From the IMG/VR virus record IMGVR_UViG_3300021400_000103: a DNA stretch of 64,000 nt. One strand, given 5' to 3'. The notes under the pieces were generated by a model. It saw nothing but the letters and a program-made list of their open reading frames with translations. It did not search any database and was not told where the DNA came from. Of this stretch, positions 2,659 through 29,600 are shown one piece after another. The stretch's first letter is position 1. Each line of letters starts with the position of its first letter. Both the position numbers and the translations under genes were made by a program. This DNA is from a virus. Taxonomy: Duplodnaviria; Caudoviricetes.

Positions 2659-2826
2659 GTGAGACTGTTAGTCTCATAAAGAACATTGCGGGTAAGTTGC
2701 CCGGTTCTACTTCTATATGGAGGTTTGTCGGATAATTACCGATCACCTCTTTAAATGACTTAGGAGATTGCAGAATGCGGTCTCTTATTTTTATGGTGCT
2801 CGATGTGAATCGATAATAAATCCATA
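2659..2826 (+). promoter_or_regulatory. Multi-hairpin intergenic element including a terminator-like stem (2761-2792)
   Basis: tgagact/agtctca; cgggtaa/ttgcccg; gaggt..tcgg/ccga..acctc; taggagattgc/gcggtctctta plus T-tract. Confidence 0.5.
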
Positions 2827-2865
2827 ACAATTATTATTTCGAAAATACGAAAGGAGATTATAGCA

Positions 2866-14995: not shown

Positions 14996-15471
14996 GTAAA
15001 CTACTCTCCTTCGACTGCTCAACGACATGTACTGGGTTAGCCTATTGGGAAAAAGGGAAATATAAAGAATCATATATTATTGACTGCCGTAAAATGAAAG
15101 ACTCGGAAGAACGCTGTCAATATATGAGTGAGATGATATGGAAGGCTTTAGATTACTATAAGCCTTCCATTGTTGTTATGGAAGATACTTACTACAAGCG
15201 CAATCCTGACGGATATAAAAAACTTAATCGTTTACAAGGAATTATATGGGGATGGTGTATAGGGCACAATAAGGAATTTAATATATTGATGCCCAGCGCA
15301 TGGCGTAAGTATATTCCTGAATGTCCCAATGGTAGGAGCGCGAAGAGAGATGAACAAAAAGCATTTGCTATAAATTATGTATCAAAACAATATAAAGTAA
15401 AGGCGAAAACCGATGATGAGGCAGAAGCAATTCTAATCGGAGAGGCTTTACTTCGGAAACAAACGGGGTAA
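14977..15471 (+). CDS. RuvC-like Holliday junction resolvase
   Basis: LSFDCSTTCTG, VVMED and DDEAEAILIG acidic motifs. Confidence 0.8.
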   Translation: MGQKIIGKLLSFDCSTTCTGLAYWEKGKYKESYIIDCRKMKDSEERCQYMSEMIWKALDYYKPSIVVMEDTYYKRNPDGYKKLNRLQGIIWGWCIGHNKEFNILMPSAWRKYIPECPNGRSAKRDEQKAFAINYVSKQYKVKAKTDDEAEAILIGEALLRKQTG

Positions 15472-20633: not shown

Positions 20634-20655
20634 ACCATAGGAGGTGAATATATAT

Positions 20656-23600
20656 ATGTCCAATCGCAAAGTAACAATAGAAGCCGATGTCAAAGTAAAT
20701 GAAAAGAAAATCAGGCAGCAGTTTCAGACAGTATCTAAGACTATCGAAAACTTGAAAGGACAAGTCAGAGATATAAACAATTCACCAAAGGGTGGTTCGG
20801 ATGTTGCTCAAAAACTTATCGATAGTATGAAAAAGGCCATTTCTGAAATGGAAGTGATGAAACAACAATATCAAAATGTCTTACAAGGAATTGAATCACA
20901 TAAAATCAGTTCTAAACAATTAAATGATTTTGTTAAAGTATTTGAAGAGCGATTTCAAGTAATTGAAAATAGAATGGCTTCAGTAGAAGAAATGGGTTCA
21001 AAATTAACAAAATCCATGAAAGCCTTTTCATTAGATAAGCTTAACGAGCGTATCAAAATAATTGAAGAGACTGTTAATAAATTCACCACAACAATTGGAG
21101 GTGCTGTCAATGCGCTTTCGACTTTTAATCAAATGGTTGATGTGTCAACCTCAAAGCCAAAAGAGATTACAATCAAAGCCGATACAAGCCAGTTGAAAAG
21201 GGTGGAAGAATTACTTAATAAAATGCAGGACTCTGATAATATTTTAGGTGGAAAATCAGGACTTAAAATAAACACAGCAACTGCAATTAAGAATCTGTCA
21301 GATTTATACAGTAAATATCAAATATTATCTGATGAATTAAACAAGCAAAAAGATCCGCAAGAATTGACTAATATAAAAATACGAATGGCTGAATTAATTT
21401 CTCAAATGGGTAGTTTCATAAATCGTATTTTAGAGTTAAAAAAGATAAGCGGAGATGATATATCCGGTGGAGCAATTGAAAAATTAGGATTCGATATAAA
21501 TGGAATAGATTTTGCAGATTTTTATATTAATATTGAGAACCTTGTAGGAAAAACCTCAACTATATTGTCATCGTTAAGAGACAATATAAAAGACAACATG
21601 GAAATTGCTGTCAATGAGGCTACAACCGAAGTTTCTCAATTCACGTTTAAAAACGGTGGTATACGTATTCCAGTAACAGTTGATGCAAAGTCAAAGCATG
21701 CATTAGAAACAAAATATAATGAAATAGTAAATACATTACAAGAGTATGCAAATGTTCACCCAGTTAATGTTACAATGAGGCTGTTCCCTCTAAATACAAA
21801 CAGAGCAGATGCCACGGAAATAACAAATGAATTAAGAAGAATTCAAACAGACATTTCTAGTGTTACAGACGAAGAACTTCGAACCAAATTAAATTCTTTA
21901 TATGACGATTTGGAATCTCAGTTTCAAAAAGCATTAAATTTAAAGATCAAAGTAGATCTTGGTGATACAGAAGCCAGCTTAAGGCAAAGGATAAAAGAAT
22001 TAAATGAAACCGTAAGAGGTGAAGGATTTACAATTTATCCTAAATTTGAAATTCCAGACGAGGAAGCAGATAAGATCTCCTCAAAATTGGCTGAAATACA
22101 GAAGGATTTTACATTTAGTGCAACATCTGAAATAAAAACAATGGCAGACTCATTAAACAAATTGTTTTCAATTGAAAATGTTGAAGCGTGGAAATCTGCT
22201 TTTGTCAACGCTTTGGATGAGATTAATGGAAAACTTACATCATTTCATAACATGATCAATCCATTGTTGGAATCGATCAAATATACATCTGCAAAGAACA
22301 AATCGGCTACTCCAAATATTGGTGATGTAAATGTCATAATTGAGTTTACAAATGCAATGTCTGCATTACAGAACGCATTAAAAAAACAACAGGAATATAA
22401 GCTTGATATTGATATAAGTCCAGTCTCAGAAAAATTAGATATTTTAAAAGCCACAATTCAGATGATAAGCGGAAAATTAAGTATATTGCCTACCTTGTTA
22501 AATGAGTTAAAGAGTTTTAAAAATATCGATGCTGATTCGTTAATTCAAAATATTCAGAACAGCGTAAGTTCAGAATCTCCGGTTTTAATACCAATAACAC
22601 CAGATTTATCAAATATAGAAGATTTTGTCGAACAAATTCGTGTGGCGCTGTCTGATTCTAAACTAAATATCGGCATAAACAATATACGGTTGAATCAATC
22701 GAAGCAGACGAGTTTAAAAGATCAATTACAAAATGCGGATTATGCAAATTTATTGTATCATCAAATTGACTCAAAACTCGAAGAATCTTCTGGGAATATT
22801 GGTGAAAAACTACGAAAAAAGATATCAGAGTCTTTAGTTGCCGGATTAAGAAACGGTCTAACATCTGTAAGTGAAATGATTGATGTTGGATTAAAAGGCA
22901 CACAATTTGAGAGTATTACCCAACAAATAATCGGCGACAGTGATACTATAGATACAATCAAAAATATTGCTAACGAGGTTGCTATTTCGTTCAAAAAAAC
23001 ACTTGGTGATGATAATTCAGACATTAAAATGCTTTTAAATAGAATCGAAAGCGACATTCAATCGTCAGGAAAAGAAATAACAATACCTATTTCTCCATCG
23101 CAAAATAATGTAAATCAATTTGTTGATAAAGTGCAGTCGATGATTGATTCTCGTAGCGTACATTTAAAAATTAGTGATGAATCCATAAATCAAAATAATC
23201 TTCCATCGGATAATACGATATTCAATGAAACTCCAGTTTCAACTGAATCTACTAATGTTGAGACAAAAGCTCTTCTTTCTAAAAAAGACGTTGTCGAACA
23301 ACTTCGTGCCGAACTTAATTTAACTAAAAAGGCTGCTGAAGATTTATTTAATCAACAGGGCTATACCAAAACAAATAATAAATATCAAATAGAGCAAATT
23401 GCAGTTAACGAATTGATAGCTTCTCTTAAAGAGAAAAAACAAATAGAAGCATCTCAAAATCCCTCTACTACTTCTCCAACTATAAATGCTATGCAATCTG
23501 AAGTCGAGGCTGTTAATCAAGCTGTCGATACAGAAAAGAAAAAGTTTGATGAATTAAAAAATAAGATATCAAAAACTATTCCAAAGGCTATAGAAACCAA

Positions 23601-26600
23601 AAATAAATCCTTTGAAAAAGAGGGAAATTTAGTAGCTAAAATAGTTGATGATGAAATTACTTATTTCGAAGTTTTAAAGGACACTGTTGATGGTGTAACC
23701 GAATCTATAAGCAAACAGGAAAATGTTGCTAAGGATTTGAAACAAAAAAATGAAACACAAAAGCAGAAAAAACAAGATAAACCAACAAGCGATAGAGACA
23801 AGGCGACATTATTGCAAGAACATTATACCGACCTAAGAAGGAGCGCTTATCAATCATTTGGGCAGAAAAGTGACATACAGCAAGAGATGTCAAAATACTA
23901 TTCACAAATAGCCAAAGAATCAGAGATTGCCTATTCTAAAGCAGAGAATAAGGCGAATAGTTTAATTGTTCAGGTAGATAATATTAAACGGTTTGGAAAA
24001 TACACTTCTGACTTTGTTGCCGAATTAGACTCTGCTAGAAATGAATTAGATGCGTTCCTTGAAGAATTGAGATCTGGAGATATTCCATTCGAGACTATTG
24101 ATCAAAGGATTAAAACATTAAGTCAAGATATTGAAGGTACATTATCAAAAAAGGCATTTAGTAGTGTCAAACAAGCTGCTGAAAAATCCTTAACCAATGT
24201 AGGATTAAAAATAGATCAGATTATCGCAAAAAACTCTGCTATGGGAAAGGATTTTGAATCAAGATTTAAAAATCTTCGCAGTGATTTGGGGTTGGCAGAA
24301 AGCGTCGAAGACGTACAAAGAATAATAGCTGAGGTCAATAAGCTTGAATCTGAATTAATTTCAACCGGGAATACTGGCAAAAGTTTTATTGATCAGATTA
24401 AACAAAGAATGAGGGATATAAATACGAAATATATCGCTCAATATTTTAGTTTTCAAGATATTATTAGATACGCAAGGCAAGCAGTTACGAACGTAATCGA
24501 ACTCAATGATGCATTTATAGAATTATCAAAAGTATCTAACACAACAGTAAAAAATCTTGAAGCAGATTTTCAGTCATATGCTGATATCGCAAAAGATATT
24601 GGTGGAACTATAACAGATACAATTAATGCAACTGCCGATTGGGCAAGGATGGGTTACTCTGTTCCAGATTCAAAGCAATTAGCAGAAGTTGCTATGTTAT
24701 ATAAAAATGTCGGAGATGGTATTGATATTACCGCTGCAAACGAATCGCTTATATCTACTCTGCAAGGTTTTCAGATGCAAGCAGATGAGGCAGAACATAT
24801 TGTAGACGTATTCAATGAGGTAGCAAATAACTACGCTATTGGTAGTGGCGGAATTGGTGAAGCTCTTCAACGGTCTGCTGCGTCTTTGAATGCTGCGAAT
24901 ACATCGTTAGAAGAATCTGTTGCATTGGTAACTGCGGCTAATACTGTAGTTCAAAACCCGGAAAGTGTCGGAACAACATTCAAGACATTATCAGCCCGTA
25001 TACGTGGCGCAGATACCGAATTGCAAGAACTTGGAGAAGATGCCGATGAATTTACCGAAACAACATCAAAACTTCAAGGATTAGTTAAATCATTAACTGG
25101 CTTTGATATACTTGAAGCTGATCAGAAAACATATAAATCTATATATGAAATTCTTATAGGTATAGGTAAAGAGTGGCAAAATCTTAGTGATATTGAAAGA
25201 GCATCTCTTGGAGAAGCTCTTGCTGGTAAATTCTATTACCAGGATATGTAGTAATACATATTAAAGAATATATTTAATTGCAGGTAAAACCTAAAGCCTT
25301 ACACCACAATAAAAGGGAAACTATTTTATGATGGTACGAAAGTAGAAACAACGTAAGGATGGTATATGGTTAAAAACCTAAGTACTGCTCTTGTATTTTT
25401 TGAAGAGAAAATGGTAGTTCATGCAACGAAGCACCCTAACGTATTCTGGAGACCGTCCAGTACTTGAGTCGAGGGTGAACGCTCAACGATCATTCCCTAT
25501 GAGGGATTTAGGAAAGGTGTTAATCACCATAAAATAAAGGTGGAAATCCTGAATACCTAAATCATTAGAAGTAGAGCCACAATCGCAAACGGTGGCGGTG
25601 AAAAACCATAAGTCGAAAAGGTATACTCCTACTCTATTTAGAAAGGATGAAGAAATGATCTATTCTCATATGAAAGTATGAGTTTTAATTGGTTATCAAA
25701 AATATGTAATGAAACAAAATAGATGGTCAGATTTGGAAATACAATTATTAAAAGATAATTATGACAGTACTTCCAAAGAAGAAATGTTAGAGTTATTAGC
25801 TCCACGATCATGGAGTTCGATACTTACAAAAGCCAATAAGCTTGGTATAAATAAAAGGTTAAATTGGACTGATTCCGAAGACAAATTATTAAAAAACACA
25901 TACTCAACAACTGATATAAATGAAGTTGTAAGACTATTTCCTGATAGAACAAAACACAGTATAATTGCAAGAGCAATAAAATTAGGATTGAATTCTTTTA
26001 ATCACCCAATTTGGACTGATGAACAAGTTCAATATATAATTGATAATTGGCAAATATTACCAGATGAAATTATAGGTCGAAATATAAATAAAACCAAAAA
26101 TGCAGTCAAAAGAAAACGTAATCTATTGGGATTACATAGGCAGCAAAAAGGTTGTTATTATAATTATGAAAATATATCAAAATATATACGTGGACAAATA
26201 TGGGATTGGAAGAAAAAATCTATGGAAAATTGTGAATATAAATGTGTTATCACTGGAAGTAAAGATTTTGAAATACATCATATTTATCCAGTCAACAAAA
26301 TAATAAAAGATATATATGAAAAATATAACATTGAATACAAGAATTATGAAGATTATTCAAAAGAGGAACTATCTAAAATAGTTACTCTTTTTTGTATTGA
26401 ACAAAATACACACCCATTAGGAGAATGCACAAGAAAAGATTTACACAAATTGTTTCATGAATTATATGGACAATATAATACAACCTATGAACAATGGGAA
26501 CGATTCAAACTCGACATTAAGAAAGGAGTTTATGATAACCATATTAAAATAGATATTGTTGCGTAATATCTAAAATGTAAAAGAAGAGAAACGCAAATAC

Positions 26601-29600
26601 TCTATACGCCGTACTTGATAATATTGAAACTCTCGAAGCTGCATACCAAACAGCCGAAGAATCTGCTGGATCGGCACAACGAGAACAAGAGAATTATCAA
26701 AAGGGTATTACATATTCGATTAATCAGGCCAAGGCAGCGCTTGAAGAGTTGTCTTATGATGCTATAAATTCTGACTTTTTGAAAGGACTTGTTGATTCTG
26801 GTACAAAATTAATTGAAGTATTAGACTTTATCATTGATAAGGTTGGTCTTCTTAAGACCGCCCTCATCGCCATCGGAACCATATGGGGTTCCCAAAAGCT
26901 GGGTTACTGTGTATCAAGTAGGCTCAGGTACCACCCCGCGCCACGGCTAAAACCCGTGGGTAAAACGCAAAGACCATCATTTCGTCAAACAACCGTTTCA
27001 CGAAATGGTGTAGGGTGTACAAGTAAAATCAAACGATGTGGGATATCCCACTCTCGTACCGCTGATATGACTGCGTGGAGCTACGCAGCCTAGGATGTCC
27101 GTGAGGCTCCTACAAGGACTGGAAAGGGTTATGGATCTCACTATAACGGTGTACCGTTATACCTAACCATAACTCCAATCAGCAGGGAAGCGTACTACTC
27201 TCCCACTACTGGTGAGCAAGTGCTGCCCCCAGAGGCTCCCAAGCGGGCGCGGACGAAGTGCTATGCATAAGTACGCGAAGGTAGAGTCCAAACACCGGAT
27301 TTGAGACGTCCGGTAAAAAGCCCCGGCTAGTAGGCATACTGCTCTGTATTACTAGCGGCTTGTGCGAGAGCAGAAATTGATGTTTACAACTAAATAATAA
27401 TGTGATACAATATTTAACAGAAAAAGGTGCTACCGTAAAGCAAGCGGTTAGCCCCTGAAACTATTAGTTATAAATAATAACCGCCGAGTTTTCTCAGGAC
27501 TGTGGGCGGTTATTTTTATGTTCTTTCACGAGTTCAATAAGTAACATCGCTATAGCATAAATAGTTTGAACCATTTTACTGCCCTCCTTTCCGAAGGGCG
27601 AACATAAGAAGCCCTTCTAATGAAGGACTACTCCCCTACCACTTTGCGCCACAGGATCCGCACTGCATGGTTTTCCCGAGGTTCGAAGATGCTAAACCAA
27701 ACATCCCTGTGCTAACCCATCTCTTACCGGCTCCAATCTTCTTCACGTTGGTGGATCCGCAGGTGGGACATTTGGGGACGTTGGTAATATGATTGGTTGT
27801 TTCCGCATTTTTATAATCGTTAATCGCATTACTAAATTCCTTATTAAATTGGTCACTAAATCCCATAAAATTCACCTCCTTAATCTATTATATAATATAC
27901 GCTTCACAAGAGCAATCATTAGCTACTACCTGGAGGAATAAAACAGTTATTTAGCGATAATCCAATTGGAACAAACGAAGATAATATTGGGCTTATGCAA
28001 GCATATGATATGCTTCGTAATAGTAACGGGCAAGGTTTTACAAGCAACGACGGCAGTAAAGTAATCAAGTCTGTTGATGATTTAAAACAGCTCGCAAAGG
28101 AATTGGGTGGATGTGATGACGAGGCATTAAAATTCTTAGACACTTGCGAAAAGATACCGGAAACTATCAAAGAAGGCGAAACGGCGTCTGAAGCATTTGC
28201 AAGAACGTATGGCAGTGGAATAAAGAACCTTGGTTCCAGCATTGCAAAACTTGGTAAAACCATCTTGTCATCTCTTGGTAAAGCAGCTCTTTCTGCTGGT
28301 ATAACATGGTTGGCGACTACCGGCATAGAATTAGTTGCCAAAGGTGTTGGCTGGTTATGGGACGAGGTACTTACCGATAACGCCGAAAGAGAACGTAGAA
28401 CACAGGCGGTAACATCAACAAGCGAGAATATTAAGACATATCAGCAAAATACAGAAGTCGTTGATGACGCTATAAAGAAGTACGAAGAACTTAATAAAAA
28501 GATAAACGAAACCAACATAACGTTTGAAGAAGAAGTTGGGTATCGTAAAGAATTAAACGAGTTACAAAAAAGCTTAAATGAAAAATTTGGCACTGCAGCA
28601 GAAGGACTTGATCTTGTTAATAAGGGATACGAAGGCCAGATTAAAGCGTTAAAAGAACTCCGAAAAGAACAAGCGAGAACTTTCTTGTATGACTCAAAGA
28701 CCGGTGCGTTAATTTCAAAAGATGGAAGTACTGACTTTCAACGTAATCTTGATTTGATAAATCAAAAAGTAGAACATGCTGTAGCCTCACTAAATACTGG
28801 TGCATCTGATACTCTAAACGAATATACCGGAGTTGATATACAATCTATAATAGATAAATATCCGCAGTTGAGACAAGCAATAATTGGAGGAGGTGCAGAA
28901 CTTACAAAATTCCAGTTTTCTCTTGATCCAAATTTAACGCAAAAAGAAGCGGATGAAATCCTAACAAGATTATATGAGGAACTTGACAAACAGTTTCCAG
29001 ATAATCCAGCGGTTCAAGAGTTTAAAAAAACATTGCAAGAATCTCTTAATCCTGGATATGACTCATCTCAGTATTATACCGCTGTTGAGAATTCAAAACA
29101 AACAATACGTAATATTCTTGCCTACAATTCAGACGATGGAGAAGATATATTAACAAAACTTGAAAATGCTACCAATGCGTATAACACAGCTTTGGCTAGA
29201 TATGAAAAAGATAATACGGCTAAGAATAAAGAGGAACTTGATGAAGCCAAGAAAAATCTTGATGAGATATCAAACACCGCAGAAACTATATTGACTGATT
29301 CTAATTCATATGAACATCGATTAATTAGCAGCAGAACTGGTGGTCTCGATGTGTATGGTCAAATGATAAATGAGATCCAGGATAAAAAGAGCGGCGGTGT
29401 TAATGGTCGTATACTTGGAATGTTTGATGGTCGCCTCGAAATGTTTGGAAAGCTTAGAAGTGAGCTTGATAAGATGACAGACGAGGAAAAACTTGCATTA
29501 GAGGTAGAACTTGATGGGAATTCAGAAGTTGTTACGCTCGATAATTTAGATAAATTTATCAATCAGGCAAAGAAAAATGCGGCAAAGAATCCTATTGATT

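Follow-up and report, generated by a model that had tools for sequence, protein, structure and literature searches.

A type I toxin–antitoxin-like insert in an intervening sequence of a phage tape-measure gene

Does a short cassette located in one of the intervening sequences that interrupt a phage tape-measure gene work as an addiction module, or is it what remains of one? The question is raised by a 64,000-nucleotide stretch of viral DNA (Duplodnaviria; Caudoviricetes; IMG/VR record IMGVR_UViG_3300021400_000103), referred to below, at its full length, as the window. An insert of about 270 bp resembling a type I toxin–antitoxin (TA) locus lies in the second intervening sequence of the tape-measure gene, termed intron 4 in an earlier note on this DNA. 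That note had described an apparent type I TA module comprising a minus-strand toxin open reading frame (ORF) and a convergent plus-strand antitoxin small RNA (sRNA), and had proposed that addiction might replace homing as the force that maintains the intron or the prophage. We consider it probable that the locus is a horizontally acquired, half-decayed type I TA locus, that is, an antitoxin-proficient, toxin-crippled remnant and not a working addiction module.

The insert and its two halves

The insert comprises the following features.

27378-27645, unstranded: TA-like insert of about 270 bp, not in the closest relatives
27383-27411, plus strand: sRNA promoter, sigma-70-type TTTACA-17-TACAAT with an extended -10 TG
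about 27418-27520, plus strand: candidate antitoxin sRNA of about 100 nt, with a 5' hairpin (27426-27455), a single-stranded linker and the terminator
27478-27518, bidirectional: intrinsic terminator common to both transcripts, consisting of the stem 27478-27512 and a plus-strand U-tract
27574-27497 (stop codon 27496-27494), minus strand: 26-codon ORF, an atypical toxin homologue, shortened and frame-shifted
27599-27581, minus strand: 19-nt hairpin sequestering the Shine-Dalgarno (SD) sequence, with the GGAGG core in a 7-bp stem, -13.0 kcal/mol
27629-27610, minus strand: toxin mRNA leader hairpin, homologous to the ...GGTTAGTCCTTC... hairpin of family leaders (alignment A6)
27630-27645, minus strand: residual part of the 5' motif of family toxin mRNAs, joined to the zinc-ribbon ORF at its end (alignment A6)

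The discreteness of the insert is seen in comparison with the two closest phages (L003 and L004), whose tape-measure segments are 82% and 71% identical to the window, respectively. The stretch 27378-27648 has no counterpart in either, with about 16 nt in its place in L003 and about 45 nt in L004, and both phages keep the intervening sequence together with the antisense zinc-ribbon gene that it carries. Five related phage genomes, searched with the covariance model, yielded no sRNA copy at any position. Within the intervening sequence, the insert sits in the cargo loop, immediately downstream of the zinc-ribbon stop codon, and its G+C fraction is 0.38, compared with 0.51 in the structured intron core. 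At the junction, an 8-nt microhomology, AAGTGGTA, is common to the end of the zinc-ribbon gene and the toxin leader; its presence in both junction partners, the zinc-ribbon gene end of L004 (AAGTGGTAA) and the toxin leader of the viral contig L050 (AAAGTGGTAGG), indicates microhomology-mediated joining. The best reading of the insert is that of a horizontally acquired copy of a type I TA locus.

The antitoxin half looks intact, with the predicted promoter, 5' hairpin and terminator all present, and the sRNA is probably still made. The promoter described in the earlier note is found at 27383-27411 and is the sole 10/12 match with an extended -10 element within 25000-28500. The plus-strand RNA, for which a length of about 100 nt had been predicted, folds better than 200 of 200 shuffled sequences (z = -3.4) and scores 75.1 bits over its full length (E = 2.9e-14) against the covariance model R1, which detects one copy over the whole 64 kb; the score has an element of circularity because R1 was built from 32 related loci including the window copy, and the family homologues were first found by BLAST with the window insert, independently of the model. 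The terminator stem has energies of -14.4 kcal/mol on the plus strand and -14.5 kcal/mol on the minus strand, with U-rich tails on both, and includes the final six codons of the 26-codon ORF together with its stop codon, as expected from the bidirectional terminator that had been noted at the 3' end of this ORF. The sRNA gene thus has its own promoter, a terminator and a predicted overlap with the toxin mRNA, as do type I antitoxins, along with the 5' hairpin, invariant terminator and promoter typical of the clostridial family described below.

Because the sRNA gene is oriented in the sense of the tape-measure gene, a polymerase transcribing the tape-measure gene would meet the sRNA terminator about 600 nt after entering the intervening sequence. 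The predicted terminator would therefore be a potential cost for tape-measure expression: either it is leaky for the polymerase making the late mRNA, or the insert is costly. The orientation also means that any read-through intron RNA would contain the antitoxin sequence, so that the expectation of an excised intron containing the antitoxin holds, with the insert located within 26905-27922.

The toxin half presents a mixed picture. The 26-codon ORF is present where it had been described, with 8 nt between its SD core and the ATG, and its ribosome-binding site is indeed locked in a hairpin, the 27599-27581 stem burying GGAGG; analogous CCCTCC...GGAGGG hairpins are found in the viral family members L047, L053 and L056. 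The minus-strand RNA 27650-27470 also folds better than 200 of 200 shuffles (z = -3.6). The hairpin at 27629-27610 was flagged as terminator-like in a scan, and its interpretation as a simple terminator of the upstream gene was rejected given that it is a conserved leader hairpin of the family. In the leader alignment, the family promoter and the GGTGCTACC arm are replaced in the window by the last zinc-ribbon codons, and a consensus scan detected no promoter-like site on the minus strand of 27575-27950. The toxin mRNA of the window copy accordingly lacks a promoter of its own and keeps the SD hairpin and the leader hairpin. With the promoter and the 5' leader arm missing, transcription of the ORF would depend entirely on polymerases that run on past the zinc-ribbon gene, as no other source is apparent. 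A model of translational coupling, whereby ribosomes that stop at the end of the zinc-ribbon ORF would release an alternative helix and so unfold the SD hairpin, was rejected, since the hairpin persists with the first 12-20 nt masked.

The encoded peptide departs from the family as well. Its hydrophobic stretch had been put at about 13 amino acids, and the longest uncharged run is 13 residues, compared with 17-23 in 21 of the 22 other aligned copies; likewise, its best 19-residue Kyte-Doolittle hydropathy, 1.11, is the lowest of all, with values of 1.62-3.04 in 21 of the 22. The one exception in both comparisons is the doubtful ORF of L044, which has an uncharged run of 8 and the next lowest hydropathy (1.45). 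Thus, the family has the hydrophobicity of membrane toxins and the window ORF does not. The family hidden Markov model gives the window peptide 1.1 bits, a score equalled by 3.4% of shuffles. Compared with the nearest toxin subfamily (L050 and L054), the window ORF is without about 7 codons of the hydrophobic region and differs by 5 nt in length just before the terminator; because of this length difference, the family stop codon is bypassed and the ORF continues to the terminator loop, where it ends. The offset of its stop codon is 26 in the window and 42-54 in the 33 other copies first analysed, placing the window stop 16 nt deeper into the terminator, and the ...HKNNRP.. tail is an out-of-frame reading of the other copies, in a frame that none of them uses. 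Neither the basic-codon end at or before the terminator nor the uncharged core of at least 17 residues that characterise the family is found, and the window peptide is unlikely to work as a membrane toxin. The earlier note was therefore right to warn that the toxin might be attenuated, and the damage is greater than had been stated, affecting promoter, leader arm, core and frame. A weak peptide similarity elsewhere in the window (2772-2831, E = 0.31) was rejected as a common A-rich CATAAAAATAA string; there was no match to the sRNA model at that position.

A family of sRNA/toxin loci in Clostridia and their phages

The homologues of the insert were identified by a BLAST search of 400 genomes of the class Clostridia, which yielded two significant matches (E = 5e-8 and 2e-7), both limited to the plus-strand RNA (window 27421-27521). 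Each of the matched loci has a sigma-70 promoter, an RNA of about 95 nt, a terminator and a convergent hydrophobic ORF of 30 or 33 amino acids that is preceded by a strong SD and ends at the terminator. The pattern of conserved RNA motifs was found in 14 viral contigs; an order-level search centred on one of the matched genomes detected the family in 13 of 301 genomes, with at most three matches per genome, and a phylum-level sample in 4 of 151. Of the 34 distinct copies recovered, 27 possess a convergent hydrophobic ORF of 24-36 codons ending in Lys/Arg codons, most with a recognisable SD. Copies adjoin genes for a tyrosine integrase or a serine recombinase, or lie downstream of tape-measure genes. 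These comparisons expose a conserved sRNA/toxin family, found in gut-type Clostridia and their phages and often present in multiple copies, that is not yet in Rfam, Pfam or NCBIfam.

The family, defined by alignments A5, A4 and A6 and model R1, is highly uniform in its sRNA genes. Nearly all 34 have a promoter of the form TTGAC(A/G)-17-TAnAAT, often with the TG, at a similar short distance upstream of the 5' motif, and the RNA begins with a hairpin of the form GGUGCUACCG-loop-CGGUUAGCCC (recognised as GGUGCUACC...CGGUUAGCCC), in which G-C is exchanged for A-U and, in additional members, U-A for C-G. Covariation is modest because the sRNA sequence is so highly conserved. The arms of the terminator stem, TAACCGC/GCGGTTA, show little or no variation among family members, and the terminator loops vary between copies. 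Among six 33-amino acid toxins, the pN/pS ratio is 0.30, indicative of purifying selection and hence of a real coding sequence; the conservation of basic C-termini follows from the final toxin codons, of the AAA/AAA/TAA type, being the template of the sRNA U-tract. The toxin mRNA of the family has its own promoter and starts with nearly the same hairpin motif as the sRNA (GGUGCUACC ... GGUUAG(C/U)CC), so that each locus has the form of an inverted duplication around the ORF and terminator; the motif may act in RNA stability or as a site for protein binding.

By sequence comparison, a complete locus consists of a promoter driving a toxin mRNA, in which the 5' hairpin motif and a structured leader, in many cases masking the SD, precede the coding sequence of a hydrophobic peptide of 26-36 amino acids with terminal Lys/Arg codons, and of a convergent promoter driving the sRNA of about 95 nt. 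Because the bidirectional terminator is shared, the sRNA is perfectly antisense to the last codons, stop codon and 3' hairpin of the toxin mRNA; the overlap of the two RNAs is confined to this shared terminator, about 45-50 nt. A role of the C-rich sRNA motif GCCCC as an anti-SD sequence was considered and rejected, given that the pairing amounts to 10 bp in L053, is not general and reaches 4 bp in the window.

In 6 of the approximately 33 copies not cut by a contig end, the sRNA has no recognisable toxin ORF, so that toxin decay with retention of the sRNA seems recurrent in the family. The window copy can be seen as an experiment of nature that separates the two halves, the antitoxin being preserved and the toxin impaired. 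In L048, L061, L065, L068, L072/L079 and L075, the sRNA gene is intact and the toxin ORF is disrupted or missing, and in L072 the BLAST match of the toxin region is split by about 125 bp. At L054:5496-6276, about 800 bp accommodate three sRNA/toxin modules, with two toxin subtypes among them; a tape-measure gene and a 336-amino acid ORF lie upstream.

Searches with the window copy by other routes were largely uninformative. BLAST of the window peptide and region against phage and plasmid collections yielded nothing meaningful, and patterns for the exact 19-mer of the SD hairpin and the back-translated peptide had zero matches in viral contigs; the peptide pattern had two matches in metagenome contigs, which are attributed to chance because both lie inside unrelated reading frames. 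The window peptide matched no Pfam, PHROG or NCBIfam model. In the comparison with known small type I toxins, which the earlier note had suggested, no Pfam or NCBIfam toxin model matched the 23 toxins of the family, which produced only weak matches to unrelated membrane-protein models, and the nearest match was a protein of known structure. Specifically, a profile of the toxin family searched against Protein Data Bank (PDB) sequences had as its top match the Staphylococcus aureus toxin SprG1(31) (7NS1), at a borderline E = 0.047 and 16.7 bits; with single peptides as queries, SprG1(31) was the sole match of the L056 peptide (E = 0.13), and the L050 peptide had none. The family sRNA matched no Rfam family at the gathering threshold (window), at E <= 10 (25100-28200) or at E <= 1 (eight family loci).

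The tape-measure gene and its intervening sequences

The 64-kb window represents the structural region of a large phage of Firmicutes, with a tape-measure protein similar to those of Brevibacillus phage Sundance, large Bacillus phages and gut phages. The tape-measure gene is in pieces: 20644-25230, an exon of 107 codons at 26584-26904, and the remainder from 27923. The features between these pieces, apart from the insert, are as follows.

25231-26583, within the tape-measure gene: first intervening sequence, carrying an HNH-like ORF (25709-26566)
26905-27922, plus strand: second intervening sequence (intron 4), which hosts the insert and interrupts the tape-measure gene
27636-27866, minus strand: antisense zinc-ribbon gene (76 amino acids), native intron cargo
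27887-27915, minus strand: putative promoter of the zinc-ribbon gene, TTGCTC-17-TATAAT, read from the sequence and below the -35 criterion of the scan

The second exon ends in ...KLG at 26904, and the third continues from 27923 in the same frame (junction KLG/LL). Since the related viral contig L002 is uninterrupted at the equivalent KNVG/IF junction and L003 is without the first intervening sequence, 26905-27922 is a real intervening element. The first intervening sequence is not present in L002 either. L004 has an element similar to it at another position in the tape-measure gene, which Rfam identifies as a group I intron (54 bits), unlike 25231-26583 itself, which is not recognised. At the boundaries of 26905-27922, a U precedes the 5' junction and a G stands at the 3' end, and a P1-like helix, with a terminal U-G wobble, can form between the exon bases CTGGGT and a GCTCAG situated some 17 nt inside the element; this GCTCAG is invariant in all three available copies of the element. 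The Rfam group I model (RF00028) had no match in the 26905-27922 region or in its L003 and L004 homologues and detected other introns of the same loci (window, L003/L004), so that its status as a group I intron is likely but not demonstrated.

The zinc-ribbon protein is conserved in L003 (73% identity) and L004 (64%), and its Pfam and PHROG zinc-ribbon matches are weak. Antisense zinc-ribbon genes with the CPxCGS...C.xCG.KW signature recur in or beside tape-measure intervening sequences of several unrelated phage contigs (L003:7658-7801, L004:8291-8461, L015/L017/L018, L025:11721-11837 and 15287-15403), and one prophage in a metagenome-assembled genome has two antisense copies. In one of these phages, a consensus promoter and a 21-codon ORF (L018:3173-3445, minus strand) are located in the tape-measure intervening sequence downstream of the antisense zinc-ribbon gene, followed (L018:3500-3640) by a match to the Rfam family FuFi-1 (RF02986) of 53.9 bits, compared with a gathering score of 59.6.

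A partly similar case was encountered in a second phage (G842, a single viral contig; L050:2641-2650, L086:~5120), in which the tape-measure ORF breaks off at that same KNVG position and continues with IF.. after a gap of about 10.3 kb. The DNA in this gap contains the closest relative of the window module, with a full 27-amino acid toxin and its own promoter, in addition to a gene for a GmrSD-like nuclease (GmrSD_N), a gene for an Ant-like anti-repressor and other ORFs. At its ends, this element does not resemble window 26905-27922, and no match to the Rfam group I model was obtained in the part searched (L050). The presence of a related module at the same KNVG/IF site suggests that the site accumulates accessory cargo, and more generally that tape-measure intervening elements collect such cargo; cassettes may move between them. 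No published case was found of a TA cassette situated in an intervening sequence that interrupts an essential gene for a phage structural protein.

Readings of the locus and comparison with known systems

In the reading that we favour, a type I TA locus landed in the cargo loop of the tape-measure intron and was joined at the 8-nt microhomology after the zinc-ribbon stop codon. By analogy with SprG1/SprF1 and TxpA/RatA, the sRNA of complete loci would pair with the stop-codon and terminator region of the toxin mRNA, leading to decay of the mRNA, a block of translation, or both. In the window, transcripts of the toxin ORF would arise solely when the zinc-ribbon mRNA is extended at its 3' end; the hydrophobic core of the ORF is about 7 residues short, and its frame is carried past the family stop codon into the terminator loop. 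The module described in the earlier note thus stands with respect to its ancestry and its convergent, 3'-overlapping layout, but its toxin half is not a normal member of the family. Maintenance of the intron by addiction is unlikely, and its replacement of homing unsupported, because L003 and L004 keep the intron and the zinc-ribbon gene without the insert, the toxin is the damaged half and toxin-less sRNA copies recur; nor do the five related phages have a copy. Several points weigh against the favoured reading. The main counter-argument to complete decay is that a canonical SD with ideal spacing and a sequestering hairpin have been kept and look maintained, and read-through from the zinc-ribbon promoter could replace the lost promoter. 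Very short type I toxins exist, such as the Ibs peptides of 18-19 amino acids, so that a 26-amino acid peptide with a 13-residue core could still perturb membranes. Furthermore, the deletion and frame change are deduced from copies with 75-78% identical sRNA genes, not from an ancestor, no close relative of the window copy having been found; loss in L003 and L004, instead of gain in the window lineage, may account for the difference between these phages; and the toxin and antitoxin functions of the family members are predicted ones.

The strongest competitor, which we nonetheless regard as unlikely, is a fully functional type I TA system, in which the 26-amino acid peptide would be an active, perhaps mild, membrane toxin translated, after opening of the SD hairpin, from a bicistronic mRNA that also encodes the zinc-ribbon protein, the toxin would be silenced by the plus-strand sRNA, and loss of the prophage or intron would kill or arrest the cell. 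The strong SD AAAGGAGGG at 8-nt spacing, in a hairpin like those of the intact L047, L053 and L056 loci, and the intact sRNA gene are consistent with such a system, the poor U-tract that trails the leader hairpin makes read-through from the zinc-ribbon gene plausible, and type I loci are common in Firmicutes prophages, where they are implicated in prophage maintenance (PMC6563280, PMC7699646). However, the 13-residue core and the hydropathy of 1.11 are below those of every confident family member, the C-terminal reading frame is foreign to the family, there is no own promoter, related phages retain the intron without the insert, and a ribosome modelled at the upstream stop codon leaves the SD hairpin closed. 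Less probable still is that the sRNA is kept for the benefit of the phage and the toxin is irrelevant, the RNA neutralising family toxins of the host or a rival prophage as a counter-defence against TA-mediated abortive infection or exclusion. The completeness of the sRNA half next to a damaged toxin half would fit this role, as would the multiple family copies in clostridial genomes and beside integrases and recombinases in other phages, and the invariance across the family of the terminator arms, which make up most of the antisense overlap. There is also a precedent in the phage-encoded pseudo-antitoxin RNA that enables escape from the type III ToxIN system. Yet the insert is found in only one phage of the lineage, the terminator loops, at which pairing would start, differ between copies, the host toxin that would be its target is hypothetical, and characterised type I antitoxins are mostly specific for their cognate toxins (PMC6563280). 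An equally speculative extension would have an orphan-like antitoxin serve as a weapon, made from its own promoter and released in the excised late intervening RNA, with tape-measure cargo loops acting as a recurrent landing pad for defence and counter-defence cassettes.

Chance signals in an AT-rich spacer, or a mere terminator cassette for the zinc-ribbon gene, could be invoked given that promoter-like hexamers over the whole region (14) hardly exceed the number expected from shuffles (12.2) and that the peptide has no family match, pattern scans with it having produced chance matches only. This explanation is very hard to reconcile with the homology of the whole unit to a conserved, multi-genome family of the same architecture and with its presence as a discrete indel; as far as sequence comparison allows, chance origin is refuted by the BLAST, pattern, order-level and model R1 matches. 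A half-decayed, horizontally acquired TA locus accordingly remains our preferred reading.

With respect to known systems, the setting of the insert resembles that of phage group I introns with ORFs in peripheral loops, in that an intervening sequence in an essential late gene has a cargo loop closed by a helix. The homing endonuclease cargo of such introns has a parallel in the HNH-like ORF of the neighbouring intervening sequence. Unlike these introns, 26905-27922 is not recognised by the Rfam group I model, and its cargo is an antisense zinc-ribbon gene and an sRNA/toxin cassette with a sense-strand terminator.

Among TA systems, those of Clostridioides difficile prophages (CD0977.1/RCd11, CD0956.2/RCd10 and relatives) are of note because experimental characterisation of clostridial type I loci is so far confined to C. 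difficile (PMC6563280). They share with the family described here the clostridial, prophage-borne location, toxins that are hydrophobic at the N-terminus and rich in Lys at the C-terminus, an antisense RNA in convergent orientation and a proposed contribution to the maintenance of mobile elements (PMC6563280, PMC7699646). They differ in that no sequence relationship was detected, in that their toxins are 34-59 amino acids long (PMC6563280) and in that none has been reported inside an intron. The par locus (fst/RNA II) of the Enterococcus faecalis plasmid pAD1 is likewise built from convergent RNAs with a bidirectional terminator, a toxin of about 30 amino acids and a leader that hides the ribosome-binding site, but uses direct repeats that make both 5' regions complementary. 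Such 5' complementarity was rejected for the family: the duplex energy of the window sRNA body with the leader is equalled by 25% of shuffles, and across 22 family loci, cognate duplexes (-21.0 kcal/mol) are no better than non-cognate ones (-19.9 kcal/mol). Without extra complementarity between sRNA body and leader, the family is unlike par/Fst, and no match to the Fst toxin family was obtained in the Pfam, PHROG and NCBIfam searches.

The nearest class is that of sprG1/SprF1 and txpA/RatA. The sprG1 system, whose toxin is represented by 7NS1, was identified by homology to txpA/RatA, and SprF1 acts in cis on the overlapping 3' end of the sprG1 mRNA (PMC8309996). TxpA-like sequences have been described in Clostridiales by Fozo et al. 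(2010), who also reported an sRNA of about 110 nt overlapping the 3' untranslated region of the TxpA-like EF3263 of E. faecalis (PMC2887945). The protein similarity between the clostridial toxins and SprG1 is borderline, and the sRNA matches no Rfam family. The overlap of the two RNAs is about 45-50 nt and not at least 100 nt, the two RNAs of the clostridial family start with the same 5' hairpin motif, and the toxin promoter and some of the membrane segment are missing from the window copy. On the side of likeness, both groups consist of convergent genes, as does the window copy itself, with a short sRNA complementary to the 3' end of the toxin transcript; the peptides are short (27-36 amino acids), hydrophobic and single-helix, with a basic tail; and the loci are located in prophages or other mobile elements, with several copies per genome. 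Of the TxpA/RatA-like character proposed in the earlier note, the layout, the TxpA/SprG-like class as nearest relative and the full-length hydrophobic toxins of the homologues are retained, and the SprG1 match (E = 0.047) is borderline. Although its membership by sequence is not secure, the clostridial family would behave like the TxpA/SprG class.

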